Below are positions 27,732 to 59,590 of a stretch of 64,000 nucleotides of DNA, piece after piece. Each line of letters begins with the position of its first letter. Position 1 is the first letter of the stretch. The stretch lies in NCBI RefSeq assembly GCF_055900595.2, contig NZ_CM148325.1. One strand, 5' to 3'. The notes below the pieces were generated by a model. It was not told the origin of the DNA. It did not search any database and saw only the letters and a program-made list of their open reading frames with translations. The position numbers and the translations under genes were made by a program.

Positions 27732-28559
27732 TTGCCATTTCAATTACGCGAAAATTATATGAACGCAATAATATCGCCCGATTATTACTATGTTCTTACC
27801 GTTGCCGGTCAGTCTAATGCCATGGCGTATGGCGAAGGACTGCCATTACCGGACAGGGAAGATGCGCCTCATCCCAAAATTAAACAATTAGCGAGATTCG
27901 CGCATACGCATCCCGGAGGCCCCTCATGTCACTTTAACGACATTATTCCACTAACTCACTGCCCACACGATGTTCAGGATATGCAGGGTTATCACCATCC
28001 TCTGGCAACGAATCATCAAACACAGTACGGCACCGTTGGCCAGGCACTGCATATTGCACGGAAATTACTGCCCTTTATTCCTGATAATGCAGGGGTTCTC
28101 ATCGTTCCGTGTTGCCGTGGCGGATCGGCTTTTACCGCGGGCAGCGAAGGGACATATTCAGAACGGCACGGAGCCAGCCATGATGCTTGTCGTTGGGGAA
28201 CGGATACTCCGCTATACCAGGATTTAGTCAGCAGAACGCGAGCCGCACTGGCAAAAAATCCGCAGAACAAATTCCTCGGCGTATGCTGGATGCAAGGCGA
28301 ATTTGACTTAATGGCCAGTGACTACGCGTTACACCCTCAACACTTTAATCATATGGTTAAAGCCTTTCGTAGGGATCTAAAACAATACCATTCTCAGCTT
28401 AATAAAATTACTGACGCGCCGTGGTTTTGCGGCGATACCACCTGGTACTGGAAAGAAAATTTCCCTCATGCGTATGAAGCTATTTATGGCAATTATCAAA
28501 ATAATGTTTTAGCCAATATTATTTTCGTCGACTTCCAGCAACAAGGTGAAGAGGACTGA
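27732..28559 (+). CDS. nanS: Sialate 9-O-acetylesterase-like SGNH hydrolase (YjhS/NanS); reading frame ends prematurely relative to a conserved C-terminal tail present in the +2 frame (28550-28738)
   Basis: SGNH-type motif VAGQSNAMAY near the N-terminus; the peptide RGLTNAPDEDPDDLSTGYFGSAYRSAENWTT...FWRER is encoded in a different frame right after the stop, suggesting a 1-bp indel in a short A-run at ~28548-28552. Confidence 0.7.
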   Translation: MPFQLRENYMNAIISPDYYYVLTVAGQSNAMAYGEGLPLPDREDAPHPKIKQLARFAHTHPGGPSCHFNDIIPLTHCPHDVQDMQGYHHPLATNHQTQYGTVGQALHIARKLLPFIPDNAGVLIVPCCRGGSAFTAGSEGTYSERHGASHDACRWGTDTPLYQDLVSRTRAALAKNPQNKFLGVCWMQGEFDLMASDYALHPQHFNHMVKAFRRDLKQYHSQLNKITDAPWFCGDTTWYWKENFPHAYEAIYGNYQNNVLANIIFVDFQQQGEED

Positions 28560-28791: not shown

Positions 28792-29270
28792 GTGCGGCAC
28801 TATAATGGTTTTCACAACAAGGAGCCATTTTCTTATACCACTTTCAGAGACCATCCGCTTATGCCACCGCCCTCTACGCAACTGTTTGCAGAGCACCTTC
28901 CCACCGAGTGGATACAGCACCTCCTGACGCTTTCTGCTCATGCGACCATTTGTCGTCTTAACCTGAGCGCGGATGGCGAAGCGGGGATTAGCCTGCTGGC
29001 CCGCAGCGCTGTCACCCAGGAGCGCCAGCGCGTGGGGGCCCCCTGGTGGAATGGCTCTTCCGCCAGACCGCACAGACATGGGGCGCGGAACGTTACCTGA
29101 AGGATGACTGGCACGGCCTGCAACTTTTTGCCATTGATGGCGCACAGTTCAGGACACCTATGAACCTGAGTTGCGTGAATATTATGGCTCTGCCAACACA
29201 TCCACTGAGCGGCAGAGCGCCTACCCGGTCATGCGTCTGGTGGCGTTAATGAATCTGGGAATCACATTCG
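28792..29270 (+). pseudogene. Fragmented DDE-transposase-like remnant (IS element relic) at the left edge of the accessory island
   Basis: Three short consecutive ORFs in different frames (…LFAIDGAQFRTP…, …YPVMRLVALMNLGITFG) consistent with a frameshifted transposase fragment; family not determinable by eye. Confidence 0.35.
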
Positions 29271-29712
29271 GCTGAATGCCATGACCGCGGCCTACCGGCG
29301 GAGCGATACAGCGTGAGGCAACTAAAGCGGCGTCAGAAATCAGCTTTAAGTTCGCATTCCTGTTTATCGTGACAGAAATGATAGTGCAGGGAAATACGGC
29401 GTCACCAGGAACCATCCCGAAACGGCTGGAGCATCTGCGGGGTGCTCTGGAAGCGGTGTTCCCACGACTATCAAGGCCGAGGGCTGTTAAGGTATCAAAA
29501 ACCCGTTATCCGGTGAAACACAGTGCTGCCCCGCTTAAGTGACGGCATTGTGTTTCTGACTGGCCTTAACTTTCCCTGAATCTCTGACGATCCTCACCAT
29601 TGATATTTTCTTCATTCCTCACCAGAGAAATAAAAAATCACTATACTCATCAAAATATGATGATTACCTTTATTCAGGTGATCACCTTACTATTTTATAC
29701 GGAAAATAAATC

Positions 29713-30363
29713 ATGAATATCCGTCAATCATTACATGACCGAATCTATGCAGAATACCCTCAACAGGCTAAAGATATATTACTGTATTTCCCCACTTATG
29801 AAATTATGCCATCGACCATAAAAATGGTTATGATTAATGAGGTGGTAGCTATAACACCGCAAGAAGATTTTTATACACCAGAGTCTGGTTATTTTACGAC
29901 TGTCGCCCGACAGTTAGCGCTGGCTGGATTATCGGCAAGTAGTGGCGAAGTCTTACTCAACCATGGTATCTACCTGACCTCCGCACTGAAACTACCTAAA
30001 ACACAGATCACAGCCACACCCGCGGAGATCATTCTCTGGTCACCTATTGTAGAATGGGAGCTCGAACTCTTTGCCAATATAAAAGTTATTTTCGTTGGCG
30101 GCGATATCGCGCGAAAATGCCTTAACATCATCGCGAAAAAGCAAACACGTAAACATGCCATCCCTTCAACTCCGACGTACAAACTGATGAATAGCGAATT
30201 AGTCTGGAAAGGAATAAGCATACTTCCTGGATATATTCTTACCGGAAAAAACCTGCTCATTGAAAAGTCAAAAATCGAAATGAATGTCGAACAATTAAGA
30301 AAAGGAATTGCGATTTATCGCAATAGTAACAGTAACCATACGAATAATTCAGTTCATGAATAA
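29713..30363 (+). CDS. Hypothetical protein (216 aa), orphan gene in AT-rich DNA at island edge
   Basis: Uninterrupted ORF with plausible start context; no motif I can confidently assign. Confidence 0.45.
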   Translation: MNIRQSLHDRIYAEYPQQAKDILLYFPTYEIMPSTIKMVMINEVVAITPQEDFYTPESGYFTTVARQLALAGLSASSGEVLLNHGIYLTSALKLPKTQITATPAEIILWSPIVEWELELFANIKVIFVGGDIARKCLNIIAKKQTRKHAIPSTPTYKLMNSELVWKGISILPGYILTGKNLLIEKSKIEMNVEQLRKGIAIYRNSNSNHTNNSVHE

Positions 30364-30876
30364 GAGATGAATCATTAATAACAAGAAATCACTGACAAAC
30401 CACCTGTAAAAGGTCAATCATTTTAGTTCAATTTCCTTTGTCATGATTATATTTTTATCGTCCTGACGATACTATTAACAATTACAATATTTATACCCTC
30501 CCCTGAACAAACAGAAAAGAACTCATACATTCGTTTATAATTCTGGTAATCCTGGCATCATACGTTTAAAATTTAAGGTGTTTGTTTTATAATCATGGTT
30601 CCAAAGACTATTGGTCACCAGAAAATGCCAGCCTTTTCGTGCCAGCTATATTTGTCCAGTGTGTTACCCCATCCAAAAATCATCCACATCCTGATGTTAC
30701 GTTAGATATAGAGAAAACAGGTTGTACTGTGCAATATGCTAACCGCATAAGCGAATATAATTTCTAAGCTGATATTGTCTGGCTGTTGGGAGCTAAACAA
30801 TATAAATATCGCCAGTTGCCAGAACGGTTATATAGACCAGGAGCGTTTCGGCTCCTGGTCTGTTTCGGACATATTA

Positions 30877-32991
30877 TCAATCAGCCACTAATAGCGGACT
30901 AGGGATACCAGATGATGAAACAAACAGCCCTTTTACGGCACGGGTTGCAGCCACATGCAGTAACGCGCGCTCATTAAATAATGCATCACGCTGTTCAACG
31001 GGATCATCGGATGCTAATGCTTTTATTTCCGGCACAACGCCTTCGTTAATCCCCACCAGGAACACATACTGGAACTCAAGCCCTTTAATACGGTGCATCG
31101 TTGCAACTCGCACGCCTGGGCGTGCATCGCTGTCACCGCTATCATTGCCTAAATTAAATGTCTCAATTCCGGCGTCATTGAGTGCTGATGCGTAGCGGTC
31201 GCAAGCATGTTTAGTACGCGCAGTAATGCAGATATCCTGAGAACGAACCTGATTCGCCAGCAATGCCTGAATTTGCTTGACGAGCGTTGCAGCCTCTTCT
31301 TTGAAATCTGCCGCATGCGTAATCATGGGCTTTTCCCCGTGCAGTAATGACAAATAATCATTACTGGTATCCGCTTCGCCATCGAGGTTATCAACCTTCA
31401 CACCAGTTAACAGCCCAACAGCAAATTGACGCGTCTCTTCTGTGGTCCGATAGTTAATCTTCAATTTTTTACTGCGACGACCACGGACGTTAATACCACA
31501 CTGACCAAGAACGACCTTATTGCGATAAATACGCTGATGCCCATCCCCGACAATAAACAGATCGTTGGGCGACTCGGGAACCAGGCTGCGAATAAGAGTA
31601 AATGCCGGGGCACCGATATCTTGAGCTTCATCGACGACAATACTGCTATAAGGTAGTTGGACCTGCTTTTCTTTAAACAGAACAATAGCCTCATGCATGG
31701 CATCGCCCATTTCGCGCAGTTTGGCACGCGCCATTTGTGCTCTGAATTCTTCGAAAACTGGCCAGATTTTCGCCCGTTGAATACGGGATAACGCTGTACC
31801 ACGTCCAACCCGGCTGACTTTGAGGTATTCCTCCCGGGTGTAAACCGCATTTGGCTGGACAACGCGTTGCCACTCTTCAGCATAGAAATTGTCAGGTAGC
31901 CCCAGTTCGGCAGGTGCCTGCTGCAAGGCATAGTTCCAGCATTTACGTCGCCCTTCATCGCTGTCGTATACCACGCGGAAATCATAACCGTGGCGTTTTA
32001 GTTGGTCGCTCATCCAGGCATCAATGTTAACGACGTCAATACGCGCCATCTCTTCTCGCGTACACAACCGCTGGAGATTAGCGCGAATATCTGCCGCCAG
32101 GTTACGCGTAAAGGTCGTGAAAAGTACCTTCTTACCGGGTTTATCTACCAGACGCTGAGATAACCACCGCGCACGGTGCATTGCAACAACCGTTTTCCCT
32201 GTACCTGCACCGCCCAGTACTCGTACCGGACCATTAGCGGGCGACTCCACCAGTTTTCGCTGGCTCGGGTGCAGAAATACACGCCATTTTTCTAAAGGCG
32301 CATTAAGCATCTGCAATAGTTCCTGTTCATTTTCAACGACATGGAAGCGACGTTTACTTCGTTCAATCGCCTCCATAAAGTCGTTGGTATCAACAGGCTC
32401 ATCACGATGATCGTTAAACTCTTCCAGCACTTCCTGGTAATCCAGCCCTTCTGCCAGCCAGTGCAGAGGTTCCCAGGCTTCTGCTGGCATTATGCTTTCA
32501 AGTTGATTAAGCCCGGCTTCATCGGTAAGCGCCATCACCTGATCAATAAAGACAGGCGGCACACCCAGGGCCAGAATCTGTTCCGCGCTGTAAGCTGCGA
32601 AGAGTTTCGGTTTATCAACCACCGTTTCCGCTGCCGGTTTGATATAGCTAATATCAATGACCTGAATCGCGCCAGTAACCGGGTGAATCGAACAATCATG
32701 CCGCCGCGCCCAGTCATATGCTTCGTCGTGTTTATCCACCCACATCAGCATATACAGAGCACCCTGTTCAGGTTTCAGAACAATGCCGCGATAAGTTTGA
32801 TCGATTCGCACCGAATGGACATTTTTACTGCGCGCATCGTGGATCTTTTCATAGTTAAGTCCATTACTGGTCGGGTCCTGACGGAATTTGGAGATGAATT
32901 CCTGCACCTTTTTTTGCTGTGCTTTTGGGATCCGCGCGAATGCGCCCAGAAAACCATCAGAAAGTGCCACCTTGGGCGTTTGCACCGTCAT
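30877..32991 (-). CDS. UvrD/PcrA-like superfamily 1 helicase with ~230-aa N-terminal extension (YjhR-like); last gene of the DISARM-like operon
   Basis: Walker A VLGGAGTGKTVVAMHRA, Walker B IVVDEAQDI, C-terminal UvrD_C-like motif ATMHRIKGLEFQYVFLVG; start overlaps upstream stop (ATGA at 32988-32991). Confidence 0.8.
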   Translation of the reverse strand: MTVQTPKVALSDGFLGAFARIPKAQQKKVQEFISKFRQDPTSNGLNYEKIHDARSKNVHSVRIDQTYRGIVLKPEQGALYMLMWVDKHDEAYDWARRHDCSIHPVTGAIQVIDISYIKPAAETVVDKPKLFAAYSAEQILALGVPPVFIDQVMALTDEAGLNQLESIMPAEAWEPLHWLAEGLDYQEVLEEFNDHRDEPVDTNDFMEAIERSKRRFHVVENEQELLQMLNAPLEKWRVFLHPSQRKLVESPANGPVRVLGGAGTGKTVVAMHRARWLSQRLVDKPGKKVLFTTFTRNLAADIRANLQRLCTREEMARIDVVNIDAWMSDQLKRHGYDFRVVYDSDEGRRKCWNYALQQAPAELGLPDNFYAEEWQRVVQPNAVYTREEYLKVSRVGRGTALSRIQRAKIWPVFEEFRAQMARAKLREMGDAMHEAIVLFKEKQVQLPYSSIVVDEAQDIGAPAFTLIRSLVPESPNDLFIVGDGHQRIYRNKVVLGQCGINVRGRRSKKLKINYRTTEETRQFAVGLLTGVKVDNLDGEADTSNDYLSLLHGEKPMITHAADFKEEAATLVKQIQALLANQVRSQDICITARTKHACDRYASALNDAGIETFNLGNDSGDSDARPGVRVATMHRIKGLEFQYVFLVGINEGVVPEIKALASDDPVEQRDALFNERALLHVAATRAVKGLFVSSSGIPSPLLVAD

Positions 32992-35900
32992 TTGTCACCT
33001 CCGGACAGATGTTGCAATGTAATTTCGTCAATTGGCCCGAATGCAACGTGCCAACCCCTGGTTGTGAATAATGGAATAAATTCTTGATTATCAATAATCA
33101 ATGCCCATTTTTGTGATGGCCAGGCGAGATCGGCTTCCGCAATAATTTCACCTTCATCATTTTGCAATTCGTAGCCGAGAGTCGGCGCAGAGAGAGAATG
33201 AGACTGAAGCAACGCGATCTCTTCAGCGCTTAATAAGCCAAACTCAATAATCTCAGCCCAACTTTCATCAGTCTCTGGTACTGCCTCTGGCGTTGCCGTA
33301 ACTTTAACGTCAACGCTTTCCTGCGGTAAATGCACGGCTTTACGGCTGGTAAAGGTCATATCCGGCAGGAACTGTAACAGGTTTACCAGTCGCCAGAAGC
33401 CATTGAGTCCCGCTTCATAACCGTCATCCTGCGTATAGCGATCGTCAAAACAGATATGCAAACGCAGCCAGCTGCGCATTTGTGCGACACTGGTCGTCGG
33501 TTTAATGGCTTGTTGTGGCAACACCGAAGCCAGCTCAATAAATTGCTGCGATGAGTTACAGCTATCGAGTAAACCACCAAAGACAAACGGTTCGTCTGGC
33601 AAAAGCTCTGCTAGCCGCCAGGCTGGCGCGTTTTCCTGCATTTCATAGGCATACTTTTGTTTCGTTCCCGCGTCCTGTGACTTCTTCACATCCAACCACA
33701 CCCAGGCATGTGCAGCAGCCATTCTCTGCCATAACTGCGTTCTTCCGCCCGGATCGGCGAGATAATCCAGCAGCAGTGCAAAACTGTTGCGTTCCCGGAA
33801 CGACGCTTCAAGGGCCGCAAAGTTGGTATCGTGAAACAGGTTATAAAACTTAGGCTGTTTCATATCCGGGTTATGCCCAAGCCCCAGGACATCCTGAACA
33901 TGTTTAAGCCCAGGCTCTTTGAGATCGGCCCACGTGACTGTCCACACCCAGAAATTATCGCTATCCCGAATCGCCTGGCGTTTTTGCACATCCTCTGCGA
34001 CGCTATTTTTGTGAAACGCAAAGCCATCAAGGAAAATAGCTACCGGTTTAATGGCATCAGACTGCATAAGCGGATATAGCACGTAATCCGGGCGACAAGG
34101 GATCCCCACTGCCTCTTTAGCGCCTAAATCCACCTGAGCTTTAAGATGCCAGCTCATCATCGGTTCGCTGCGGGTGTTAATAATCCACCCAGCGCCCTGA
34201 TGCGCGTAACTGCGACTGACAATCAGGTTTTTATTTTCTTGCAGGCAGCTAATAAACCGTTTTTCCAGCTCACTGCCCATCATGGCTTCGAGGGAAATGT
34301 TTTTGATGGAATCAATTACCCGTATCGAATCTCTTGCCTGCAAAATTTTCGCCAGCAAGAGACGCGCCTGATCGCGGGAGACATACTTCATGCGCCCACG
34401 GTCACGGTAAGCGTAAACGCAACGATAACAACCATCTTTATGCGTATCATGGTTGCAACTGCATTCCACTATCGCCTGATAGGCCAGTTCAAGTAATTTC
34501 AGCAAATTGTCGGGAGTGCGCATCAGCTCTTTAAGAGAACCAGTCCCCCCCGGGACGGTATCGTAAATCACCAGATACTGCCGCCAGGATTCGCCTTCAT
34601 TTTCCGGCTCGCGGTACACAACGCCTTTCAGGTGATCGACATTCCCCTTGAAGTAATGTTTAAGGCCGAGCTGGATCGCCGCCCCAAGAGAAGCCTCCAC
34701 GACACGGTCATTACTGTAACTGCTTACCGGGAGCAGAATTCGCAACGCTTCTGACTCCAGCTGGCGATAGAGATAGAGATAATCTTCGAACTTCGCCTTT
34801 TCCGGTTCCGTGCGATATTTGCAGCTCAAATCATGACGTGGTTCATGATCGCGAGGACGCTGTACCATGCCGCACCCCAGGCAAACTTTAAACCCGGTTC
34901 GCTTCTTCGCTTCTCCGGCAATCATCAACTCATTGGCATCATCCGCCATTTTGCCGAAGTTGATATCCCGCAGGGTGACTTTGCTTAAAAATTCAAAACC
35001 AAACGGAACTTCGCCTTCCTCAATCGCGTATGCCGCCGATACATCTTCTTTTTCGAAACTAACCAATAGCTGACGCTGGAAGAAAGCAGGTTCACGGCTG
35101 TCGCTCTCGTCGCTGATCTGGCTATCACGTGCGCTGGCGCGGGCATACACCTGGCGAAGTTTCAGCAGCGTGGTTTTTTGTCCGGCGTCGGCCCACCCCG
35201 GTGTGCCACATTTCGGGCAATATTTATGCTGGTCGCCCGTCTGGTCGATATTTTCGCTGTAGTTACAGTGGCTACAGATACGCCAGTTCTCCGGCTCAGA
35301 GACCTTCAGGTCTATCTGCTCAATTTCAACTTTATGCCCACCGGCATAGAAATTATTCAGCGGAGCCAGCTCAGCCAGCGCCGTTGATGCCGGGCGTTCA
35401 TATTCGAAAGTGGTGTTTTGATATTCACGCGCTTCCCCGCCTTCTTTACGCCGCCAGAGCACAGAACGTAACGTAATACCGGCTTCCGGAAAGGCGTAGT
35501 TAGGCAGCAGACCTTCATCCGTGAGGAAATTCAGCGTCTGCTTATTGTTGATTTGATTGACTAGCGCCATCAGCGCCTGCCGTTCTGAAGTTAACTCGCG
35601 CATATCGCTGTCAAAGTTTTGATCGCGCGGCGCGTTCTCCAGCTTATCGATACTGCGCTTGAGTTTATCGATGCGTGAACGCAGAGATTTGCGATCTTCC
35701 ACCAGCAGTTTTAACGCCTCTTCGATACGCTGCACCAGAGAGCGTTGTCCTGGCGCGCCCTGAAGATAAGACAACAACTGTTGGCGAGTTTCTGCGGCAA
35801 GATCGGGGAAGATCGCCGTAAATTGTGCAGCAATCTCCGCATGATGCTGTTCGATATATCTCAGTAAGTTATACGGAAAACCCGATTTACGCCCGAACTC

Positions 35901-38900
35901 CAGCTCATCCAGCATCTGTTTGACGTTTTTACAGATAGCGGATTCTGGTACACCGGTTTTCACCCAGTTATCCATACAAAAAGCTGCCAGCTGGCGTTCG
36001 AGAATAGCCGTTGCATTGAGGAAGACGCCAGGAGCCTGCACCTGGCCCTGCATCATCTCCAGCGGTTCTTCAAAGAAAAACTGATCGTGCGGGTTCCCTT
36101 CTGCCACGGTAATGTTTAACGCGTTACCATCTTTACGACCGGCGCGACCAATACGCTGCAAGTAGTTGGCCTGAGCAGGTGGGACAGAACAGAGTAAAAC
36201 GGTGGAAAGATCCCCAACGTCAATACCCATCTCCAGCGTCGGTGTTGCCGACAACAGGTTGATATTCCACGGTTGGTTGCCGCGGTAGAACGATTTTTCG
36301 GTGGCTTCGCGATCTTCACGGCTAAGCAGCCCCGTGTGTTCTGCGCCCTGCACGCGCGCGATGTCCATGTTCTCCCAACGCCAGGTCGCCATATTGTCGA
36401 CTTCCTGGTAACGACCTTCACAACGTAAAGAGAGACAAGGCGCATTACGCCACTGCCAGCCTTGATCGGCCGGAGCCCGGACAACCTCACGGCAACATGA
36501 ACAATTAAGCTGAACGACGTCACGGCTCACCACCAGCGCAGAAGGCACCAGTCCCCAGGCTTCACGCCCTTTGGTGTCAAAATCTTTTACTACTCCGGCT
36601 ATTTTCAACGCCGTAAACAGGCGTCGTAACACTGTTTCCGCAACGCTACTGATAAACAGATTATTGCCGTTACTCAGCGTGCGATTGATCCAATGCTGAT
36701 ACCAACTGGGGTTAGACTTCGCGCCAATCAGGCGATGGAAACCATTAATTTTTTCAAACGACGCATAAGCCGGTTTACGCGTTTTCGGACCGATAGAAGG
36801 CATATAGCGCGAGGTACGCTCTTTTTGCGTCATCATAAAGGTCGTGCCATCACGGCGATAACTTTCGAACGTCGGATGCATAACGGCCCCGGCCTGGCGT
36901 TGATACCAAATAACCCCCAGCGCCAGGTGCGCGACCTGCTCGACGCTCACACCGGACATCTCATCACCCAGCTCTTCACAAAGCTGTTGATGCAGGGCGG
37001 TAATTGCCGGATTAAAGCGTTCTTTATCCACTCCGGCAACGGCATAACCGGTGGCTTCCAGCGTACGTCCGATACGCGCGCGCAGGGTAAATTCGCTGTA
37101 CACCTCCCAGTCGAGGCGCAGGGAAACCAGCTCCGGCAGATCGGAGTTCTCCGCCAGTTTGCCTTCATTTTTCAGTGTCTGATAATCATTCAGCCACTGC
37201 ATATTTGGTGCGATGAAGTTCGCTGCAAAATGAGCATCGTCCGGTGAACGTTCACGCGTTTGTTGGCAAACACGCGCCGCGAACGCATCCAGCGGTAATG
37301 TCTCTTTTTCGCCAAGAACACTGGCGATTTGCCCACGAATCATCAGCGGCCAGGTACGGGCAGTAAAGAAGCTGGCACGATGCGCGGCGTCTTGTACCGA
37401 GTCAGAAAACGTAATCAGCTTTTTATGTTCGTTGAACTGGCTGCCATAAAGCTGGTGAATCATCACCGCCGACAGACTGGCAGCCCGTGACCCCAGAATC
37501 GAAATCCCCTGTTTGCTGTTGCAGTACGGGCATTCATTAGCAAACTCCAGCTCGTCCTTACGCTCTTTGAGCATATCCGGGATCAGTACCTGCAACAGTT
37601 CCGTATGACCGCAATGTCCACACTGGACGCTGGACTGTCGGTTCAGTTTCAGACAGATAGGGCACAGTTTCTGGTGTGCGCCACTGACCGCTTTTTCGTT
37701 GTTATCCGGGAAAGCAAGGACGATGGAGCGCCCTTTTTCAAAGAACTGGCGATAAATGCCGTCGAGGTCTGTTTCCAGCTGAACGCTTTGCCCATGACGC
37801 AGGCTGGCCCAGCCGGTTGCGTGGCAGTCACGGCAGTGGATAACCGGCAAATAGTGTTCGCGATCTTCCACCGCCACATCATCGGCAAACACCAGTCTCG
37901 GCGTTTTCGCCACGCTGGCGACCAGACGACGCATCTCACGAAGCCACAACTGGGAACGCAGTTGCACAAACGGCAACACCGGGCGCGCTTTCTTCGCCTG
38001 GAGACGTTTTTGCCGATCGTGTTCCGTTTCCGGTACTTCGAGACGTGCCTGCGCGATCAGCGCCAGAATGCTTTGCAGCACGCGTCGGGCATGGTCGGCG
38101 CTTTCTGCCAGCATGACCTGGAGATTTTCCAGACACTCTCGTTCAGAGAGGATCCCGCCTTGCAGATCATGGAGTAAGACATGCATCACGCTGTGGCGGC
38201 GTAACAGTGACCCCAGCGCAATACGCTTTTCGCGCCCGTCGTCGCTCTCCAGATCGTCCGGGAGTTGCAAGTCGCTGTCGGAGAACCACAAAGGGATTTG
38301 TCCGTTGAGATACGCCACCGGGGTAGCGTAACTCTGCGGGTCCAGCGCCGAAGCGACCTCCGGCCCCGGATACTGACTGTACGCAATGGCGTAATCCTGC
38401 AAGTACTCCGCTGCCGTGTAGCGATCTTCGCGAATAACGGCGTCATCGGTAAACGGCTGGTCAAAGATTGTTTTTGCGTAATCGAGCAGTTGCCCCAGTT
38501 CGTCGCCGACGGTAGCTGATGTCCCGACGCAGGCGAATCGTTGGTTATCCACACCTATGTGATGCTTCAGACGTCGCACCAGACAGGCCAGATCCGACCC
38601 TTGCGCGCCATCAAACGTATGCAATTCATCCACGACCAGGTAACGCAATGAACCGGGCTGGTTGTAACGCCAGAGCGGCTGATCGCCAGGGCGCATCAGT
38701 AGGTAGTCGAGCATTTTGTAGTTGGTCAACAGGATGTCCGGCGGGCTTTCGCGCAGCGTGTGCTTACAGGTAATGACCTTTTCTGCCGACATTTTTTTGC
38801 TGGGTTCGATTTCGCTGTCGCCGACAAACAATCCGACGGTCACCTTGCCATGCAGTTGTGGATCGCTGGCGATGGTTTTGGCGAAACGGCTGGCCTGATC

Positions 38901-39329
38901 GGTTGCCAGGGCGTTCATCGGGTAGATGATAATTGCTTTAACCCCGGCTTGTGACGCGCCCGCGCAGTGGTTGAGCAGCGGGAACATAAAGCATTCTGTT
39001 TTACCGGAGCCGGTACCGGTAGCGACCAGTGTCGGCTGTGGCGCGTCGCATCCCAGACGCTGAAATGCCCGGGCCTGATGCGCGTGCGGCGGGAACGGCA
39101 GCGTCAGATTAGGGAAAAAATTCAGCGGTAAGTCACTTTTACGAAACGGCAACTGGGCGGAAAGGTATGGTCCTTTCAGCAGCGTTTCGGGCTGGGCCAG
39201 AAATTGCTCCAGCATTGAGACATTATCGTTATTCTCACCGTTAAACAGCGGGCTGTTTAGCGGGAACGCCGCCCGTAAAAAGGCGGCAACGCTGTCGGCG
39301 ACCTGCCGACTGACAACGGACGGCAACAT
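32988..39329 (-). CDS. Giant (2113 aa) DEAH-box helicase with C-terminal Cys-rich Zn-ribbon region (DUF1998/MrfA-like); fused DrmA+DrmB-type or DruE-like protein
   Basis: Motif I LVATGTGSGKTECFMFPLL, motif II YLVVDELHTF, motif VI QRIGRAGRKDG; Cys clusters CSHCNYSEN...CPKCG, CLGCGMV, CSCNHDTHKDGCYRC; start overlaps upstream stop by 1 nt (TGATG at 39327-39331). Confidence 0.8.
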   Translation of the reverse strand: MLPSVVSRQVADSVAAFLRAAFPLNSPLFNGENNDNVSMLEQFLAQPETLLKGPYLSAQLPFRKSDLPLNFFPNLTLPFPPHAHQARAFQRLGCDAPQPTLVATGTGSGKTECFMFPLLNHCAGASQAGVKAIIIYPMNALATDQASRFAKTIASDPQLHGKVTVGLFVGDSEIEPSKKMSAEKVITCKHTLRESPPDILLTNYKMLDYLLMRPGDQPLWRYNQPGSLRYLVVDELHTFDGAQGSDLACLVRRLKHHIGVDNQRFACVGTSATVGDELGQLLDYAKTIFDQPFTDDAVIREDRYTAAEYLQDYAIAYSQYPGPEVASALDPQSYATPVAYLNGQIPLWFSDSDLQLPDDLESDDGREKRIALGSLLRRHSVMHVLLHDLQGGILSERECLENLQVMLAESADHARRVLQSILALIAQARLEVPETEHDRQKRLQAKKARPVLPFVQLRSQLWLREMRRLVASVAKTPRLVFADDVAVEDREHYLPVIHCRDCHATGWASLRHGQSVQLETDLDGIYRQFFEKGRSIVLAFPDNNEKAVSGAHQKLCPICLKLNRQSSVQCGHCGHTELLQVLIPDMLKERKDELEFANECPYCNSKQGISILGSRAASLSAVMIHQLYGSQFNEHKKLITFSDSVQDAAHRASFFTARTWPLMIRGQIASVLGEKETLPLDAFAARVCQQTRERSPDDAHFAANFIAPNMQWLNDYQTLKNEGKLAENSDLPELVSLRLDWEVYSEFTLRARIGRTLEATGYAVAGVDKERFNPAITALHQQLCEELGDEMSGVSVEQVAHLALGVIWYQRQAGAVMHPTFESYRRDGTTFMMTQKERTSRYMPSIGPKTRKPAYASFEKINGFHRLIGAKSNPSWYQHWINRTLSNGNNLFISSVAETVLRRLFTALKIAGVVKDFDTKGREAWGLVPSALVVSRDVVQLNCSCCREVVRAPADQGWQWRNAPCLSLRCEGRYQEVDNMATWRWENMDIARVQGAEHTGLLSREDREATEKSFYRGNQPWNINLLSATPTLEMGIDVGDLSTVLLCSVPPAQANYLQRIGRAGRKDGNALNITVAEGNPHDQFFFEEPLEMMQGQVQAPGVFLNATAILERQLAAFCMDNWVKTGVPESAICKNVKQMLDELEFGRKSGFPYNLLRYIEQHHAEIAAQFTAIFPDLAAETRQQLLSYLQGAPGQRSLVQRIEEALKLLVEDRKSLRSRIDKLKRSIDKLENAPRDQNFDSDMRELTSERQALMALVNQINNKQTLNFLTDEGLLPNYAFPEAGITLRSVLWRRKEGGEAREYQNTTFEYERPASTALAELAPLNNFYAGGHKVEIEQIDLKVSEPENWRICSHCNYSENIDQTGDQHKYCPKCGTPGWADAGQKTTLLKLRQVYARASARDSQISDESDSREPAFFQRQLLVSFEKEDVSAAYAIEEGEVPFGFEFLSKVTLRDINFGKMADDANELMIAGEAKKRTGFKVCLGCGMVQRPRDHEPRHDLSCKYRTEPEKAKFEDYLYLYRQLESEALRILLPVSSYSNDRVVEASLGAAIQLGLKHYFKGNVDHLKGVVYREPENEGESWRQYLVIYDTVPGGTGSLKELMRTPDNLLKLLELAYQAIVECSCNHDTHKDGCYRCVYAYRDRGRMKYVSRDQARLLLAKILQARDSIRVIDSIKNISLEAMMGSELEKRFISCLQENKNLIVSRSYAHQGAGWIINTRSEPMMSWHLKAQVDLGAKEAVGIPCRPDYVLYPLMQSDAIKPVAIFLDGFAFHKNSVAEDVQKRQAIRDSDNFWVWTVTWADLKEPGLKHVQDVLGLGHNPDMKQPKFYNLFHDTNFAALEASFRERNSFALLLDYLADPGGRTQLWQRMAAAHAWVWLDVKKSQDAGTKQKYAYEMQENAPAWRLAELLPDEPFVFGGLLDSCNSSQQFIELASVLPQQAIKPTTSVAQMRSWLRLHICFDDRYTQDDGYEAGLNGFWRLVNLLQFLPDMTFTSRKAVHLPQESVDVKVTATPEAVPETDESWAEIIEFGLLSAEEIALLQSHSLSAPTLGYELQNDEGEIIAEADLAWPSQKWALIIDNQEFIPLFTTRGWHVAFGPIDEITLQHLSGGDK

Positions 39330-42300
39330 CAGGCGCTCTCCTTATCTTGTGCAAAGAACGCCCAGGCCACTTTGTAATCGTCTTCGCGATCCGGCTTGAT
39401 AAACGGAGCCTGCCAGGTGACGGTACGGCGCTCGCCTTCGTCGCTGCGGGTATAGTCATCAAAGGTGACGCTGACGGTACCGGTTTGCAGATGTTTGACA
39501 TCATCCCAGCCGATAGCCTGATCGGTGCAGTCACCGCCGGTCCAGTCCGGGCTGTCGACGTTAAAGACAAAGCCGTTTTTCAGGTCAGCTTTACGCGCAG
39601 TGCGAGGCAAGCCAACGCCCACCAGCCCTTTGCTTGGGGTAAAGATAATGCGACCGTTTTGATCGTACCAGGTATCCGCTTCGTACTGGCGCATCACCGG
39701 GAACTGAACGCGATAAATGGTAAGCAGTTCTTCGAGGGTTAACCCTAGCGCCTGCGCCACCAGTACGTCGATTTCCACCAGCGCCTGACGACGACTGTAG
39801 TCAGAGCGTAAGGCGCAGTTACGCTGCCACTCTGGGGTCAGATTGGTGAAGAAATCCTGGGGAAGCGGCGGGAGATCGCGGCTCCAGCGCTGGGTGTTGA
39901 AGTCTGGGGTGTAGCAGGATTGCCAGAGATCAGCGTAATCTTTCGTTAACACATTCAAAGCTAATGCTCTTGAGTTTGCACTCATTAACTCAACATAAGG
40001 GAAGCCACGCAATGTTGATTCATAAACATCCGCCCGCCCTGTTGTTTTCAAATAAAAATCAGCCACTATTGAATGGCAAAATGCAGAGAAACTTAGCAGG
40101 TTTATTGGCTCTCTAAATGTTGTTGAGAGTACAGGGTGTATATGAGCAACGTGCTTTGGAACTATGCTGGATATCATCGAGCGTTCTGATGATGCCCCAA
40201 ACATTCTTCGATTAACAAAACGATAATAGTCCGTCACCTTCCTCGGCTCGTCTTCATCCTGCTCTTTCCACGAAACCCGTGGGGTGCGCTTTGCATACTC
40301 CTGTGCATCACAGGCTGGAATATAGTTAGTGCGCGGCAAATAGTCGTCGGGCAGAGTTAGCAATTCTAGGTTATCGTATGCTTTATTCGTGTCACAAACC
40401 GCTCTAGGCGTATTGTAGAAAGGATTGCCAACAAAAAAATGAGGGCCAGACAAAACCCATTGTGATGCTTCTTCCGGGAACTGTGTATGTCGCTCAATTG
40501 TACCATCGCTTTGCTGATTAGTTTCATGCCACATTTCTAGAGAATAATATTGCCCCTGCAAATCACCTAATCGCCTAGGTTGTTTCGCAAACTTTTCAAG
40601 TACTGCAACCAATTGAGTAGCATGTAACGCAGGAAGACGGGCTTCATGTGCTGTAGTGCCAGCACTATCATAGAGACGCGAGAAAAGACCTAATTGCTTT
40701 AAATTTACATGCAAGACTCGATCGAAATGTCCCTGAAAATTCCATTTAACCTTTATTTTACCATCAATTTCAGTTTCTTCTTTTATCCCCGGAACAATGC
40801 CTTCCCCTTTATGTTCAAAACACGCATCAATAGTTTGAGGAATAAATAAATTTGCTATATTTGAGAATGCCACTATCTGAGAATAGGGGCCATACACATT
40901 AATGCTAAATAATGTCTGGTTATGCACCTCAGTGAATAATTTCGTTTCATTAATAAACTGAAAATGCGCCCTAAGCCTCGGATATACCGACGCACGCAGC
41001 TGCCCGCCTTTTGGGTCATCATAAATCCCTTCCGGGTGCAGGAACCCTGCCACGCCTTTCTCTGCCCCCAGACGCCAGGCCTGCGGCAGGAAGCATTTAT
41101 ACAAGTTGGTCTGCACCCCGCGCAGTACCGGGTAGTTCTGCTGCGCATTGAGGAAGTTTTGCATCCCTTCACAGCCTTCATACTCGCTGCGCCAGGCCGC
41201 TTCCAGCGCCGGGATCTGGTTAAAGGTATCAATACGCAACGTTGCCAGCTTCGATGCACTCAGCTTACGCAGCACAAATTCCGGCTCGTAATCACCCAGC
41301 ACGCCCGCTTCCTGCCATTCCACTTTCAGCCACGGCGGGTTTCCGAGCATCAGGTCAAAACCGCCACGCTCGGCAAACAAGTCGCAGAACTCCAGATCCC
41401 AGTGGAAGAAACGGTGCTGCTTTCTCAGGGCATCGACAATCGCCAGACGCGGCAAATGACGGAACAACACCTCGGTTTTCAGACGACCAGCAACGGAAAA
41501 CAGCGAAGACTCTTCTCGCAGCAGGCCGTCTTCGGCAAACAGATCGCCAGTGGTGTGCTCCGCAACTTCAGTGACTTTTTCCGTGATTACAATCCCGTCG
41601 AGCAGGGTTTCAATCTCAAACAACCAGGTGCCGCGATCCGGTAACTCATCGGCTTTGTCGATCGGCCAGAACCACAGCGCGCACCAGTAGTCCATCACCC
41701 AACGCAGCTTCTGGTAGGCGCTGTTATCTTCAAGACGACCGCTAAAGGTTTCATCTTTACTGCTCAGCGAAGAACGCGTCTGCTCGCTGTTTTCTGCCGG
41801 CCACACCGGGTAGCTGTCGGCGGTTTTCAGACGTTCTGCTTTAAGTTGCTGGCGATAGGTGTTCCACAGAGCTTCCACCTTTTCGCTGATACGCTGCACA
41901 TCAGCAATCTCATGCCCGGCAAAGCTTTTAATAAACTCTTTGCGCCAGCTGTCCAGGGCTTTGAAGTCATCCGGATAACGCTGCTTAACAGTTTTATCGC
42001 TGTAGTTAGCCATACCGCCGTCGGGCAGCAGGAAGTGAAAAATCTGCGTCTCTTCACGCGGCGTGTTCATCGCCAGTTCGACCGGCTCGCTGTTAAGCCA
42101 GCTCGGATCTTTGGCTTTTTTGTAGGTCAGTTCACTCTTGTTGAACACCTGACGGCGCGCGCCCACCAGTGAGTTACCGCAGTGCAGCTGGTAACCAAAC
42201 CACGGTACAAAGGCATCGCCACTGATGGCGTTCAACCACAGCGACACTTCCGCCAGTTCCACCGCCACCGGGTTTAAGTCCACGCCGAAAACGTTGTTGT

Positions 42301-44251
42301 CGGCAATGTACATTTTCACCCGCTGTAACTCCTGGGTGTAACGATCCTGCGGAATACGGCGACCTTCCGCCTGCTGCTTGTGGAACAGATACGCTTCCGC
42401 CAGCTGGTTGATGGCTTCGTTAAGGAACGCCGCGCTGCCCATCGCCGGTTCGCACACGGTGAGGTTTAAGATGGCATCAGCTTTGGCGTGCGGATCGCTA
42501 ATGGGATCAATCTGCTCCTTAAACAGTTCTTTCAGGGCATATTTAACCAGTGAGCGGGTCAGCACTTCCGGGGTGTAATAAGAGGCAGATTTCTCACGGT
42601 CGCGCCCGGCCATACGGTAGATAAAACTGCCTTTGCGGTGAATGCGCAGACTGCCGTCTTTCTCGTAGACCTTCTCGTCTTCGTGGTATTTGCCAATCTC
42701 ATCCTTACTGACGAAGTAACCCGTCTCCAGCTCGTTAAACTCTTCCCCGGCTTTCTTCACCTCGTAGAGATCTTCGCTGGCGAAGAATCCGCGATAGGAA
42801 AGCAGCGCCTCATACACCGCACCTAACTGGTTGATACCCAACTGGCGATAAGAAATACGTCCGCGGCGGTTAAAGCGCCCTTTGCCCGGGCGGCTTAACG
42901 ACATCGCCTGGATAATCTGTTGCAGGGTTTCGTTACGGAATACCACGCGGTTAAGAATGCGGGTGTTGTTGGCATCGAAAAGATGACTTTCCAGACGCGG
43001 GACGCTGAACTGATGACTATGGATGGTGATCCGGTCGCCGCTCTCCAGGTCACTCTGTATTTTCACGCCGCCGTTGTAGCCTTCGCGCACCAGTTTAAAC
43101 AGCATATTCAGGCTGTCGTGGAAGTAGCGCCCGTTGCGATCTTCTTCGCTGGTCAGCGGGATCATCTCCAGATCGCGCAACGTTTCCAGGCTGTAACCTT
43201 GCAGATAGGTTTTGGCGGTCATTGGCGCATAACCCAGCTCCGGGCGCGCTTCAATGTAGAACAGGAACAGCAGGCGGTACATGTAACGCAGACATTCGCG
43301 GCTCAGTTCATCCGGGTCCACCGCACGGTTACCGGTATAGTTTGCCAGGCCACGGTCGATCAGATAATGCATCGCTTCGTTGCCCAGCAGCTCAATACTT
43401 TCGCGCAGGGCATATTTCAGATCTTCCGAAACACCAAACGCATGTTTGTGCGAATTGTCATCCAGCGAGTCAAGATAAGGTGCCCCACTGCCCGGCAGCA
43501 GCGAATCTTTATGTAGCAACACTGCCGTCGCTTTCAGCGTATCCGTTTCACGACGACTTAAAATCTCTTCAAAATCAAAACGTAGCAGACGGTTTTGCGC
43601 CCACTTAGTACGGTCCAACAACAATAGCTGACGGTTACCGAGCAGCAGCACAAAACGCGGCGGTTCATTTTGAGTGAAGACCGCCGTAGAGAGCAGATCC
43701 TGCCAGCTGCGATATTCACCGTTGGCTTTTTTGCGCAGGCTGTCGCGCTTATGTTTGTCGGTATCCGCCGGGAATTGCGCGGTCAGTAAAGAGAGCGCCA
43801 GCGGATCCAGCGTTCCTTCTTCCTGATCGTGTGCTTCAACAATCCACAGCCACGGGCTACCGTCAGTGCTGTTGTAACGCGCCAGTACCGGCAGTGGTGT
43901 ATCGTCATCCAGCATTTGGATCTGCGGCGTAATTTCGTAGCCCAGCGCCTTTAACAATGGCTGCCAGCGATTACGTTGATCGGCCAGACGCTGCGGGATC
44001 TGACGCTGTTTTTCGTGCTCGGCAAGTTTGCGGAAAAACTCAGTCGCCAGACTGTTAAACTGGTTCCACGGAGCGCGGTATCCCGGCTCTACGTCTTTGC
44101 CCTGTTCACGAGCGGCACGCTCCGCTTCACGCGCTGCATTTTCCTGGGCTATCCAGGGTTCCAGCACATCGCGGATATCACTGGTGAATACCTCACCCAA
44201 ATAGTGGTTAGAGTAAAATTCGTTTTCGTTATTAATACCGACCAGCGCCAT
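39329..44251 (-). CDS. Large (1640 aa) N6-adenine (amino) DNA methyltransferase, DrmMI-like
   Basis: AdoMet-binding motif I CEPAMGSAAFLNEA and catalytic motif IV GNPPW (NPPW = N6A/N4C amino-MTase signature); starts 2 bp after the SNF2 gene stop. Confidence 0.85.
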   Translation of the reverse strand: MALVGINNENEFYSNHYLGEVFTSDIRDVLEPWIAQENAAREAERAAREQGKDVEPGYRAPWNQFNSLATEFFRKLAEHEKQRQIPQRLADQRNRWQPLLKALGYEITPQIQMLDDDTPLPVLARYNSTDGSPWLWIVEAHDQEEGTLDPLALSLLTAQFPADTDKHKRDSLRKKANGEYRSWQDLLSTAVFTQNEPPRFVLLLGNRQLLLLDRTKWAQNRLLRFDFEEILSRRETDTLKATAVLLHKDSLLPGSGAPYLDSLDDNSHKHAFGVSEDLKYALRESIELLGNEAMHYLIDRGLANYTGNRAVDPDELSRECLRYMYRLLFLFYIEARPELGYAPMTAKTYLQGYSLETLRDLEMIPLTSEEDRNGRYFHDSLNMLFKLVREGYNGGVKIQSDLESGDRITIHSHQFSVPRLESHLFDANNTRILNRVVFRNETLQQIIQAMSLSRPGKGRFNRRGRISYRQLGINQLGAVYEALLSYRGFFASEDLYEVKKAGEEFNELETGYFVSKDEIGKYHEDEKVYEKDGSLRIHRKGSFIYRMAGRDREKSASYYTPEVLTRSLVKYALKELFKEQIDPISDPHAKADAILNLTVCEPAMGSAAFLNEAINQLAEAYLFHKQQAEGRRIPQDRYTQELQRVKMYIADNNVFGVDLNPVAVELAEVSLWLNAISGDAFVPWFGYQLHCGNSLVGARRQVFNKSELTYKKAKDPSWLNSEPVELAMNTPREETQIFHFLLPDGGMANYSDKTVKQRYPDDFKALDSWRKEFIKSFAGHEIADVQRISEKVEALWNTYRQQLKAERLKTADSYPVWPAENSEQTRSSLSSKDETFSGRLEDNSAYQKLRWVMDYWCALWFWPIDKADELPDRGTWLFEIETLLDGIVITEKVTEVAEHTTGDLFAEDGLLREESSLFSVAGRLKTEVLFRHLPRLAIVDALRKQHRFFHWDLEFCDLFAERGGFDLMLGNPPWLKVEWQEAGVLGDYEPEFVLRKLSASKLATLRIDTFNQIPALEAAWRSEYEGCEGMQNFLNAQQNYPVLRGVQTNLYKCFLPQAWRLGAEKGVAGFLHPEGIYDDPKGGQLRASVYPRLRAHFQFINETKLFTEVHNQTLFSINVYGPYSQIVAFSNIANLFIPQTIDACFEHKGEGIVPGIKEETEIDGKIKVKWNFQGHFDRVLHVNLKQLGLFSRLYDSAGTTAHEARLPALHATQLVAVLEKFAKQPRRLGDLQGQYYSLEMWHETNQQSDGTIERHTQFPEEASQWVLSGPHFFVGNPFYNTPRAVCDTNKAYDNLELLTLPDDYLPRTNYIPACDAQEYAKRTPRVSWKEQDEDEPRKVTDYYRFVNRRMFGASSERSMISSIVPKHVAHIHPVLSTTFREPINLLSFSAFCHSIVADFYLKTTGRADVYESTLRGFPYVELMSANSRALALNVLTKDYADLWQSCYTPDFNTQRWSRDLPPLPQDFFTNLTPEWQRNCALRSDYSRRQALVEIDVLVAQALGLTLEELLTIYRVQFPVMRQYEADTWYDQNGRIIFTPSKGLVGVGLPRTARKADLKNGFVFNVDSPDWTGGDCTDQAIGWDDVKHLQTGTVSVTFDDYTRSDEGERRTVTWQAPFIKPDREDDYKVAWAFFAQDKESA

Positions 44252-44253
44252 GA

Positions 44254-47112: not shown

Positions 47113-47180
47113 CGGTTTTTCTGTCTATTTGGGGCAGTGGCGGTAACGTCATCCTGAAAAATGTGGCGCGGCACACTGCG

Positions 47181-56600: not shown

Positions 56601-57009
56601 CACCTTCACAAGCCAGTGTATGCAGATAACCCGAAGCTTGCCCCAGGTTTCTTATCTTTCTTTTCCAGTAGCGAATGCCATCATTAACCAGCTTCTGTCG
56701 ATGAACATACGGAACTTTCCAGTCAATAGAATCTAAAATTGTGTCCCATTTAGGGTGTCCGACCGTATGAGTCCGGCGGATAAACTCTGCGGCATATATG
56801 CTAAATAGAACATCGCTATAGGAAATGAATATCGTTCTTGGATAACTACGGGGGGCATATGTACGCAGTAGTTCTGCCAAACTTTCGTACTCTGTATCAG
56901 TACAACGGTAAGCATATAACGCCCGTCCATCAGCTCCGGATAATGAACGGCGACTAAAAAACATGTTAAGCCATTGCAAAAGTGGGTTAACTGGAGTTTT
57001 CACAAGCAA
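53650..57009 (-). CDS. druH: Large (1119 aa) protein without recognisable catalytic motifs; Druantia type III DruH-like partner of DruE
   Basis: Long uninterrupted ORF, no P-loop or nuclease motif visible; translationally coupled to the DruE-like gene; size and pairing match what is described for DruH. Confidence 0.55.
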   Translation of the reverse strand: MLVKTPVNPLLQWLNMFFSRRSLSGADGRALYAYRCTDTEYESLAELLRTYAPRSYPRTIFISYSDVLFSIYAAEFIRRTHTVGHPKWDTILDSIDWKVPYVHRQKLVNDGIRYWKRKIRNLGQASGYLHTLACEGGLPIRMIENESGYLITYFRRIYQALRGQASQYPAAKIAQKLGDTIPVTMQNELVYEIAGEFCETLCRLLSEHPPQSSDPVSALRKLSPDWHLQLPLVLPEANAAEIVRRLLSQSSEIRSASSLQVERIWVDVDDSWYCDARFRFPATMRTEQLTSLFECNIQPEQTRLIISGKWRNGGARLAMLSRYEQQDWRVELLPIAMQKLSGADAMAEISLSLHEGPILLGHTIPKGGYELTEELPWVFEAMNESESQLKLVGMGSVSSRLNALFISLPKNSHLDISGEGEFDIPRLLKNSERSLTKISGVFSVVLHDGAVCTIRTQQLYDSAIEYYIKSTEVELVKSDYPVHRAWPKIGWKKDLQYGIVPEKELFWRSIRSGNNAWYSVASEMPKGQIEVRRIVNDEVLFSGKVVVLPADFDINIIPESAQQGIIMLSGITDTRIDKYTNNEKVTLKSDYSQNECAIYYNSSQMLENTVDLRVSWKDGSNLKLLLPKPVSGGRFVTNDGSVHFDGVASIAHLHGIDAELLTMSCAGRGYLNIELLDENPVAEKFRYLHADLPLLSGRNDKLQQISLYENYNLLNSMLACAWNSNSTLCVDFYSDRFGKDKATLNIKRYDGSFIEHDQGLLVDIKNSVVFPANRIDELVVDAISLKDPGLHKSLLKKDEFAYDLSALNVQDSPWLIVGKLDGTARIAPVIKWMLPVLQTNDLLLNALCEADPEQRKKKFNELIFEIDNNPLQNYCCLLTEYIKKYKMNNGLSLLDLDLFRGISSNYRVVVQLLISSCLSGDSDTIYDIQEELPFSWGWIPVSIWKDVFQKCWAYLEKQINDKTLALHILQPFIAFMNHRAHIDRRLAPIANMLLTYSESLPTGCDVLPTVSREQFNEAKQMLLRNPDSFGRISIFPKELWSSAITPELKSVFNKLWIEDKYHSRLEKRFNLMLVAALLTQKDNNLIHQLSALFEFHYQQAPQQLGVIYQYYFEQAGVCH

Positions 57010-57220
57010 CCTGCCTTCCTTTGATACAATTCGTAACAGGTTACTATCATCATAAAAAAGCTCAACCCGATGAACTCGCTAAAAATGAGACAAATCATTT
57101 ATATCTCGAAAAAACTTGTTACAATCATGAGCGCTACACCGAACTTAACCATATAAATTATGTGCGTTTTGTTTATTTTTTAAACAATTACAACTATCCA
57201 TTATTTACACAGGTATCAAA

Positions 57221-58873: not shown

Positions 58874-58879
58874 TCGATC

Positions 58880-59587: not shown

Positions 59588-59590
59588 GAG

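Follow-up and report, generated by a model that had tools for sequence, protein, structure and literature searches.

An unusual uracil-DNA glycosylase superfamily protein encoded at the left edge of a composite Escherichia coli defense island

The window analyzed here is a 64,000-nucleotide stretch of contig NZ_CM148325.1 (NCBI RefSeq assembly GCF_055900595.2), and our subject is a plus-strand gene for a 216-aa protein (29713..30363) that stands at the left edge of a ~32-kb composite defense island. Its product, identical to WP_001026378.1, is an unusual member of the uracil-DNA glycosylase (UDG) superfamily of base-excision proteins. Two UDG-superfamily enzymes are known in E. coli, Ung and Mug; the gene adds a third, structurally distinct member, present in ~2% of complete E. 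coli genomes and located inside a phage-defense island. The reading we favor, with moderate confidence, is that the gene is cargo at the edge of the island, encoding a base-excision enzyme that was acquired horizontally and acts independently, and is not a component of the operon beside it.

A UDG fold with an unusual putative active site

The initial annotation of the window found no motif assignable by eye. By eye this is so, but the Pfam UDG profile (PF03167) matches the protein below its threshold (E 0.003, 18.1 bits versus a cut-off of 24.3), the PGAP label in some genomes is 'uracil-DNA glycosylase family protein', and most homologues carry precomputed PF03167 matches, flagged as weak where their strength is reported. 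Searching PDB sequences with the single protein gave a best E value of only 0.18, and profiles were needed: that of the broader family reached the family 5 structure 2d3y (E 2.2e-9) and, less strongly, family 4 (E 0.013). An AlphaFold2 model built from a 25-sequence alignment (pLDDT 91.5, pTM 0.89) has an alpha/beta/alpha fold with a four-stranded parallel sheet, as in solved UDG-superfamily structures.

Residues are numbered below as in the 216-aa E. coli protein, and residue and neighbor counts are taken over the best 80 of 263 relatives found in species genomes (79 or 80 for a given residue). The core clade shares invariant motifs I41-N42-E43-V44-V45-P46, F53-Y54 and G85-x-Y-x-T-N90-A-x-K93-x-P95-K96, further invariant residues E114-x-E116, G130-D131, P151 and T155, and a motif B that reads P172-S-Y174-I175-M-T-G-x-N180-L-L-I-E-K-x-K187. 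Those that resemble active-site residues are N42-E43, F53-Y54, K93, P95-K96, E114, E116, D131, Y174, N180 and E184-K185.

Motif A of the E. coli protein (I41-N42-E43-V44-V45-A46, 29833..29850) retains the INEVV that is invariant in the alignment and in 79/79 relatives and has Ala at position 46, where 79/79 have Pro. An acidic residue at the Glu43 position is conserved across the wider family; Glu43 is predicted to activate the attacking water and may be the counterpart of the Glu in the GE(A/G)PG motif of family 4, a correspondence drawn by inspection and not by structural superposition. The aromatic pair F53-Y54 (29869..29874), invariant in the alignment and in the relatives, is predicted to stack on the base, by analogy with the equivalent Phe of family 4 UDGs (PMC11078745). 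In the beta-2 motif (G85-x-Y-x-T-S90-A-x-K93-x-P95-K96, 29965..30000), which was placed by aligning it with 2d3y and 1l9g in HMMER, the Asn that reads uracil in family 4 falls opposite position 90, as does an Ala of family 5; this base-reading position varies in the wider family (N/T/S/A). Motif B (P172-G-Y-I175-L-T-G-K-N180-L-L-I-E-K-S-K187, 30226..30273) was placed by profile alignments, which set Ile175 opposite the catalytic His, namely H190 in the ASYHVSRQN of Thermus thermophilus UDGb and, in TM0511, the His of TFHPSY, and N180 opposite N195 of UDGb. Ile175 is found in 79/80 relatives.

The E. coli protein has a single cysteine (C136), and none is conserved in the core clade; it therefore has no Fe-S cluster. 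A CxxxPC motif at the N-terminus and a Cys in the AVKC form of the beta-2 motif occur only in more distant relatives (P0120, P0130, P0132, P0139, P0149, P0156, P0188, P0230 and P0250 in our alignment A3). Since these deeper members keep both sets of cysteines, which resemble the ligands of the Fe-S cluster in families 4 and 5, we infer that the subfamily descends from those Fe-S families; within it, the clade that holds the E. coli copy appears to have lost the cluster.

Judged by these alignments, the protein lacks the His and Fe-S hallmarks of families 1, 4 and 5 and UdgX, as well as the GLAPA motif of family 5. Compared with family 5 (UDGb; TTHA1149, 2d3y), it lacks the Fe-S cysteines, has Ile175 in place of the catalytic His190 and carries an acidic residue in motif A, INEVV(P/A) instead of GLAPA; N120 of UDGb aligns with a residue that is not conserved in this family. 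The comparators for family 4 (UDGa) were Thermotoga maritima TM0511 (1l9g/1vk2), T. thermophilus 1ui0 and Sulfolobus tokodaii 4zby, together with UdgX. Relative to these, the E. coli clade is without the Fe-S ligands and has Ile for the His of the motif-B 'HPS', and the E. coli copy has further lost the Asn (S90) and an Arg (M159) of family 4. Glu43 is invariant but stands in I-N-E-V-V-(P/A) and not G-E-(A/G)-P-G, and Asn90, present in 79/79 relatives, is Ser in E. coli. The crosslinking loop specific to UdgX also seems to be absent from the E. coli protein. With family 2 (MUG/TDG) the family shares the lack of a motif-B His, but its motif A is not G-I-N-P-G and there is no significant sequence similarity.

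A patchy family of gut and anaerobic bacteria

The gene had been described as an orphan, and this did not survive the searches, which returned 111 homologues (E<=1e-3) and, with a profile run exhaustively against 1.84 billion cluster representatives, 441 clusters at E<=1e-3 and 275 at E<=1e-10, as well as the 263 relatives mentioned above among 100,044 species genomes (one genome per species). Most of the matches come from gut Lachnospiraceae, Bacteroidales and Enterococcus and are 36-49% identical. Beyond the E. coli and Shigella copies, the 111 homologues are ~200 aa long and 36-48% identical, and the few annotated ones come from Muribaculaceae, Duncaniella and Clostridia. By these profile searches the family is a small one that stays separate from the canonical UDG families, which are very large.

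Nearly all of the best 80 of the 263 species-genome relatives belong to gut or anaerobic Bacillota and Bacteroidota, among them Lachnospiraceae, Oscillospiraceae, Muribaculaceae, Bacteroides, Parabacteroides and the Enterococcus avium/raffinosus group. Plasmid relatives were found only on Enterococcus megaplasmids. A tblastn search of 50,697 phage genomes gave no match, and viral structure models offered only generic UDG folds at <=17% identity. The initial annotation had held that clear homology to an unrelated housekeeping family would count against its proposal; the protein does fall in a DNA-repair superfamily, but in a patchy accessory subfamily that is not a housekeeping one. A literature search for WP_001026378 returned nothing, and the subfamily appears to be uncharacterized. 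One paper, on an END nuclease, proved unrelated to the gene. As a side observation, two genomes hold two family copies on different contigs, Anaerotruncus colihominis JM4-15 (loci L052 and L096) and 'Bacterium 1XD21-70' (L063 and L072).

Genomic contexts of the homologues

The neighborhoods of the 80 species loci were surveyed by clustering crude open reading frame (ORF) calls within 6 kb, with DefenseFinder and PADLOC left out of the survey of all neighbors; in this crude test, no recurrent neighbor cluster held a recognizable defense gene. An HTH-WYL-WCX regulator (Pfam WYL 2e-19, HTH_11, WCX) lies immediately upstream on the same strand in 24/80 loci, from Lachnospiraceae and their relatives (L029, L036-L038, L040, L045, L047, L050-L052, L057, L058, L065, L066, L072, L077, L081, L087, L089-L091, L093, L094 and L096). 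An MFS_3 transporter follows 19-201 bp downstream in 15/80, and 14 loci have both. WYL regulator, UDG-like gene and MFS_3 efflux-type pump are a conserved three-gene module, possibly an inducible resistance module of gut Firmicutes. Large serine recombinases occur in 9/80 loci, sometimes near this module.

In Bacteroidales the recurrent neighbors are DUF6194 (12 loci), a hexapeptide acetyltransferase (12), Zn_ribbon_2-YCII (13) and a class A beta-lactamase (6). Across the 80 loci, the large neighbors that recur were judged by eye to encode regulators, ABC and MATE pumps, kinases or metabolic enzymes, and no helicase, nuclease or methylase is among them. Separately, we noted that the Bacteroidales loci (L002, L023, L025, L031-L033, L041, L043, L048, L059, L060, L075, L079 and L084) are arrays of small stand-alone genes that resemble collections of resistance or immunity genes and also hold HxlR, DJ-1/PfpI, CAT and Sel1/DUF4303 genes, the acetyltransferase being Vat-like. 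A link from these arrays to immunity proteins or deaminase toxins was considered and not adopted, being speculation from a single context.

Ten homologue contexts were inspected individually, and none of the ten contained a defense gene. They included an array of small genes in Bacteroidales (HxlR, DJ-1, acetyltransferase and CAT); an integrative mobilizable element that has the homologue in its cargo region; an apparently archaeal locus (so assigned from its Hef-type helicase-nuclease), where the homologue follows a CYTH gene; a spore-former locus, where it follows a gene for a Cys/Met-metabolism PLP enzyme; two apparently proteobacterial chromosomal sites, their taxonomy taken from the neighboring genes; and two Enterococcus megaplasmid sites, in raffinosus and gallinarum. 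At a clostridial locus (L003, 3887-5825) the homologue begins 14 bp after a pyrimidine-nucleoside phosphorylase gene and near a HAD-hydrolase/thymidylate-kinase fusion, an arrangement that hints, from one context only, at a connection with pyrimidine metabolism. A more specific connection of the phosphorylase locus to fluoropyrimidines was likewise set aside as speculation from one context.

The WYL regulator, the MFS pump, DUF6194 and the other recurrent partners gave no tblastn match in the window, from which it follows that the E. coli copy either lost these partners or never had them.

A proposed independent base-excision enzyme

Taken together, these results lead us to propose that the protein would act alone. 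The I-N-E-V-V loop, F53/Y54 and residue 90 would form a pocket to receive a non-canonical, uracil-like pyrimidine flipped from the DNA, and a water activated by Glu43 would cleave the N-glycosidic bond, leaving an abasic site. Because the family has no motif-B His, and the E. coli copy no Asn90, the substrate range probably differs from uracil. As a group, the subfamily behaves like an accessory gene spread among gut microbes, often under WYL (DNA-damage-type) regulation and near efflux pumps, and not like a dedicated defense-island gene. With its acidic motif A and neither catalytic His nor Fe-S cluster, the odd active site may point to a new phage-DNA modification as target or to a new damage specificity.

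Several points weigh against this reading. The Pfam UDG score of the E. coli protein stays under the gathering cut-off, scans of the protein against NCBIfam, PADLOC and PHROGs give no match, and no biochemically characterized member of the subfamily was found in the literature. The loss of the motif-B His, together with that of N90, R159 and R169 in E. coli, could mean little or no glycosylase activity. In a consensus scan and by reading of the sequence, the leader of the gene has no strong sigma-70 match and offers only a weak GGA as Shine-Dalgarno element; with neither a convincing promoter nor a strong ribosome-binding site upstream, expression of the ORF is uncertain. Finally, the gene is located within the 32-kb composite defense island and has been kept next to the operon in two different islands, which argues that we have under-weighted a function in defense.

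The last of these points bears on a doubtful but serious alternative, that the protein is a stand-alone antiphage effector of the Brig type. It would excise a modified base from incoming phage DNA, such as a hypermodified pyrimidine, or uracil in phages that use uracil or inhibit Ung, and the resulting abasic sites would block replication. Brig1 (Nature 2024, PMC11078745), Brig2 (bioRxiv 10.1101/2025.10.29.685425) and Brig3 (bioRxiv 10.64898/2026.02.25.707755) are single-gene UDG-fold defenses that excise modified bases from phage DNA. These three antiphage glycosylases, reported since 2024, are proven single-gene systems in AT-rich, mobile and defense-island contexts, and they make a subfamily with an odd active site a well-defined and cheap candidate. 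Our protein resembles them as a small, single-domain UDG-fold protein in AT-rich mobile DNA in or near a defense island, and its proposed chemistry, base excision to abasic sites, would be theirs. Its island also carries DISARM/Druantia-like, Druantia III-like and Zorya II systems, and at pheV, in a second island, it is still attached to its block. The family has a patchy distribution and has spread horizontally, some loci being close to serine recombinases or within an integrative mobilizable element, and the base-reading position that varies in the wider family is uniquely Ser in E. coli. WYL regulators, moreover, are also known to control BREX and CBASS.

Against an effector of this type, similarity to Brig1 is not significant (hhalign with alignment A3: probability 0.05%, E 0.83; BLASTP E 3.6), the Brig1 sequence having been taken from a machine-read PDF supplement of PMC11078745 that may hold small errors, and motif A of Brig1 is of the GLNPG type. 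Brig2 and Brig3 were compared by description and not by sequence: the reported homologues of Brig2 are mostly from Pseudomonadota, whereas this family is mostly from Bacillota and Bacteroidota, and Brig3 is longer, with residues numbered to at least 233. Homologues of the present family, unlike Brig1-3, lie outside defense contexts, as the ten inspected contexts and the recurrent clusters of the 80 loci indicate. No PADLOC model matches the protein, and the gene is absent or broken in >80% of the E. coli genomes that keep the island block.

Divergence of the E. coli copy

The E. coli protein is the most divergent sampled member of the core clade. Of 46 positions invariant among the other 24 members aligned, it keeps 35 (76%), against 95-100% for every other member, and it sits on a long branch, being 27.6% identical to an Fe-S-type outgroup to which other core members are 31-39% identical. 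In addition to A46, it alone has S90 (Asn in 79/79 relatives), M159 and S169 (Arg in 80/80 each), G173 (Ser in 80/80) and H148 (Asn in 78/80). In the alignments, R159 falls opposite the Arg conserved in the family 4 'VRG' and position 169 opposite a conserved Lys, and both residues may contact DNA. With the base-reading Asn and two conserved Arg among the six changed positions, the E. coli copy has probably altered its specificity or weakened in activity.

These replacements suggest a further serious alternative, which we nevertheless consider unlikely: that the copy is a dead or nearly dead remnant, a decaying hitch-hiker kept only through the recent spread of the island. Residues that 78-80 of the 80 relatives keep (N90, R159, R169, P46, S173 and N148) have been replaced here, and the share of core-invariant positions retained is correspondingly low. 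The population also holds independent inactivations (a deletion, an IS1 truncation and two frameshifted alleles, P0002 and P0003, in E. coli and Shigella), the usual WYL regulator and pump are missing from the window, and expression signals are weak. Yet 216 codons have stayed in frame despite ~60% divergence, the residues E43, F53/Y54, K93/K96, D131, N180 and E184/K185 are kept, and the AlphaFold2 fold is confident. An intact frame combined with retained putative catalytic residues is the pattern expected of purifying selection through most of the history of the gene. Long branches also lead to the proteobacterial relatives P0119 and P0129. Should the E. coli copy prove inactive, it would be a clean example of cargo decay at the edge of a defense island.

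A broader proposal, possible but tentative, is that the INEVVP / PSYIMTGxN subfamily is a mobile class of DNA glycosylases for exogenous targets, of which the E. coli copy is a re-specialized form. One such target would be phage DNA, modified or containing uracil, attacked by a fourth 'Brig' lineage insensitive to Ung inhibitors. The other would be lesions made by genotoxic xenobiotics, as the WYL-regulator/glycosylase/efflux-pump operons of Lachnospiraceae suggest. Ser90 and the lost arginines would then reflect re-specialization on recruitment into a native E. coli defense island.

Independence from the neighboring operon

The independence of the favored enzyme from the adjacent operon can be read from their distribution. 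The operon, traced by its UvrD gene and annotated as intact, occurs in 525/5426 complete E. coli genomes, including O157:H7 EDL933 and 22 plasmid places, whereas an essentially full-length ORF (>=80% covered, >=99% identity) occurs in 92/5426, always on the chromosome. About 40 more E. coli genomes retain only a 3' stump of the ORF left by IS1, from codon 163 onward or less (at most the last 165 bp), and ~378 have flanks of the EDL933 type, at 90-95% identity, with the ORF cleanly deleted.

The deletion itself is visible at the nanS / IS-relic / operon locus of O157:H7 EDL933. There, 661 bp have been lost between imperfect 8-bp repeats, which a three-way alignment of the window, EDL933 and the pheV island places at 29712..29719 (CATGAATA) and 30373..30380 (CATTAATA) of the window. 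The scar, that of a clean microhomology deletion, retains ATG AAT, the start and second codons, joined to ...AACAAGAAATCAC, and the operon genes are annotated as intact (L008, 6150-7030). In a second island, inserted at tRNA-Phe (pheV) with its own integrase, the ORF is cut by IS1 at codon 163 and stands beside the same spacer and UvrD gene; E. coli Res13-Lact-ER02-39 shows this block as ORF stump, spacer, UvrD and large helicase (L009, 3299-9793). On a plasmid, IS3 abuts the UvrD gene. The ORF is therefore independent of the operon, which in most carriers is found without a full copy of it and around which deletion, IS1, IS3 and frameshifts have each left their mark; ancestrally it was part of the mobile block, yet the operon does not need it and repeated losses have occurred. 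A 72.5%-identity blastn match in strain EC23HZZ201, between uxuA and IS1, has no annotated feature and was dismissed as an AT-rich chance match or relic.

These findings bear on the roles that the initial annotation had offered, an accessory, regulatory or anti-defense factor. In the form considered here, the protein would serve the DISARM/Druantia-like operon as an accessory or regulatory subunit, or would be an anti-defense or anti-restriction protein, and its position next to the operon in two island types, convergent with it and sharing a terminator region, is what speaks for such a role. We regard this as very improbable. The operon lacks the gene in ~430 genomes and on plasmids, so that an obligatory partnership is not borne out, and homologues elsewhere never adjoin helicase or methylase genes of this kind. 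An anti-defense factor is made unlikely by the failure to find phage-encoded relatives in the 50,697 phage genomes or, beyond generic UDG folds, in the viral structure models. Both roles are largely excluded.

A genuine gene of foreign origin

The ORF runs from an ATG at exactly 29713 to 30363, and its start codon is confirmed by the match between the N-terminus of the E. coli protein (MNIRQSL) and that of clostridial homologues (MNIRQTL). The protein corresponds to cluster P0001, with 183 member sequences on 260 contigs. A spurious ORF in AT-rich intergenic DNA, for which the low GC content and weak translation signals might be cited, can be dismissed, since homologues in different phyla match over their full length (E 1e-40 to 1e-50) and the UDG-fold model is confident; the gene is genuine, and the absence of conservation in other genomes that would have marked it as spurious is not what we see.

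Several descriptive elements of the initial annotation stand: a lone plus-strand ORF of 216 aa convergent with the operon, an insertion-sequence relic before it, and an AT-rich foreign gene at the left border of a defense island. The foreign origin follows from composition and relatives. The GC content of the ORF is 40% (39% at third codon positions, GC3), while the window as a whole is at 47% and the operon at 52%, and the GC profile dips to 0.31-0.33 around it; the best matches, at 44-49% identity, are from Enterococcus, Lachnospiraceae and Muribaculaceae, and we take gut anaerobes to be the source of the gene.

Flanking DNA and the wider island

The description of >300 bp of AT-rich non-coding DNA on each side is right downstream, where a spacer of 513 bp (30364..30876, 36% GC) separates the convergent genes, and wrong upstream, where the AT-rich leader is 169 bp long (29544..29712, plus strand, 34% GC) and gives way to an insertion-sequence relic of 52-61% GC. 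The leader contains a perfect 12-bp palindrome, AGGTGATCACCT, at 29676-29687, 26 bp upstream of the start codon and including a GATC Dam site, and a direct repeat, TCCTCACCA, at 29591 and 29616, 25 bp apart within 29591-29631; both are possible operator or regulatory sites. The relic (28862..29543, plus strand) is an IS4-like transposase pseudogene, annotated by PGAP as 'transposase, frameshifted' (mapped from an identical E. coli genome) and supported by a faint Nterm_IS4 match in one contig; it truncates nanS and marks the left edge of the island. The nanS gene itself (sialate O-acetylesterase, 27732-28559), truncated at the island junction, is a PGAP pseudogene in related genomes; between it and the relic, the opposite strand carries the annotation of a 29-aa 'hypothetical protein'.

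The spacer is common to all three island versions, at the nanS locus, in the O157 allele and in the pheV island. It contains the best sigma-70-like site of the region (TTTAAA-17-TATAAT, 30565-30593) and a 61-aa ORF (30582-30767) that PGAP does not annotate; an Rfam scan of 29300-31000 assigned no family to the spacer and gave only a chance snoRNA match. A GC-rich hairpin, GACCAGGAGC-N6-GCTCCTGGTC (30835..30860), was read from the sequence and is absent from the consensus-scan list; it probably terminates transcription of the operon and may do so for the ORF as well.

Beyond the spacer lies the four-gene minus-strand operon (30877-47124), which encodes a UvrD-like (UvrD/GajB-like) helicase, a 2113-aa helicase, a 1644-aa type IIG-like methyltransferase and a 952-aa SNF2 helicase. 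The first of these, a 704-aa protein (30877..32991), is the product of the last gene of the operon, which ends at 30877; it is given as context and has no functional tie to the ORF. PADLOC models match the 2113-aa helicase (DruE3 2e-103, DrmA 4e-14), the methyltransferase (DrmMI 5e-57) and the SNF2 helicase (DrmD 3e-99). The label 'DISARM-like' fits the DrmD and DrmMI matches, but the large helicase matches best as DruE, and on these profile matches we therefore call the operon a DISARM/Druantia hybrid.

The rest of the island (~47348-60900) begins with a Druantia III-like pair, which consists of a 2104-aa DEAH helicase annotated as 'motility-regulating' and a protein of the STY4851/ECs_5259 family. 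Type II Zorya (zorA2, zorB2 and zorE) comes next, and after it a second copy of nanM, which is partial. This partial nanM suggests either the right boundary of the island or a duplication made by its insertion.

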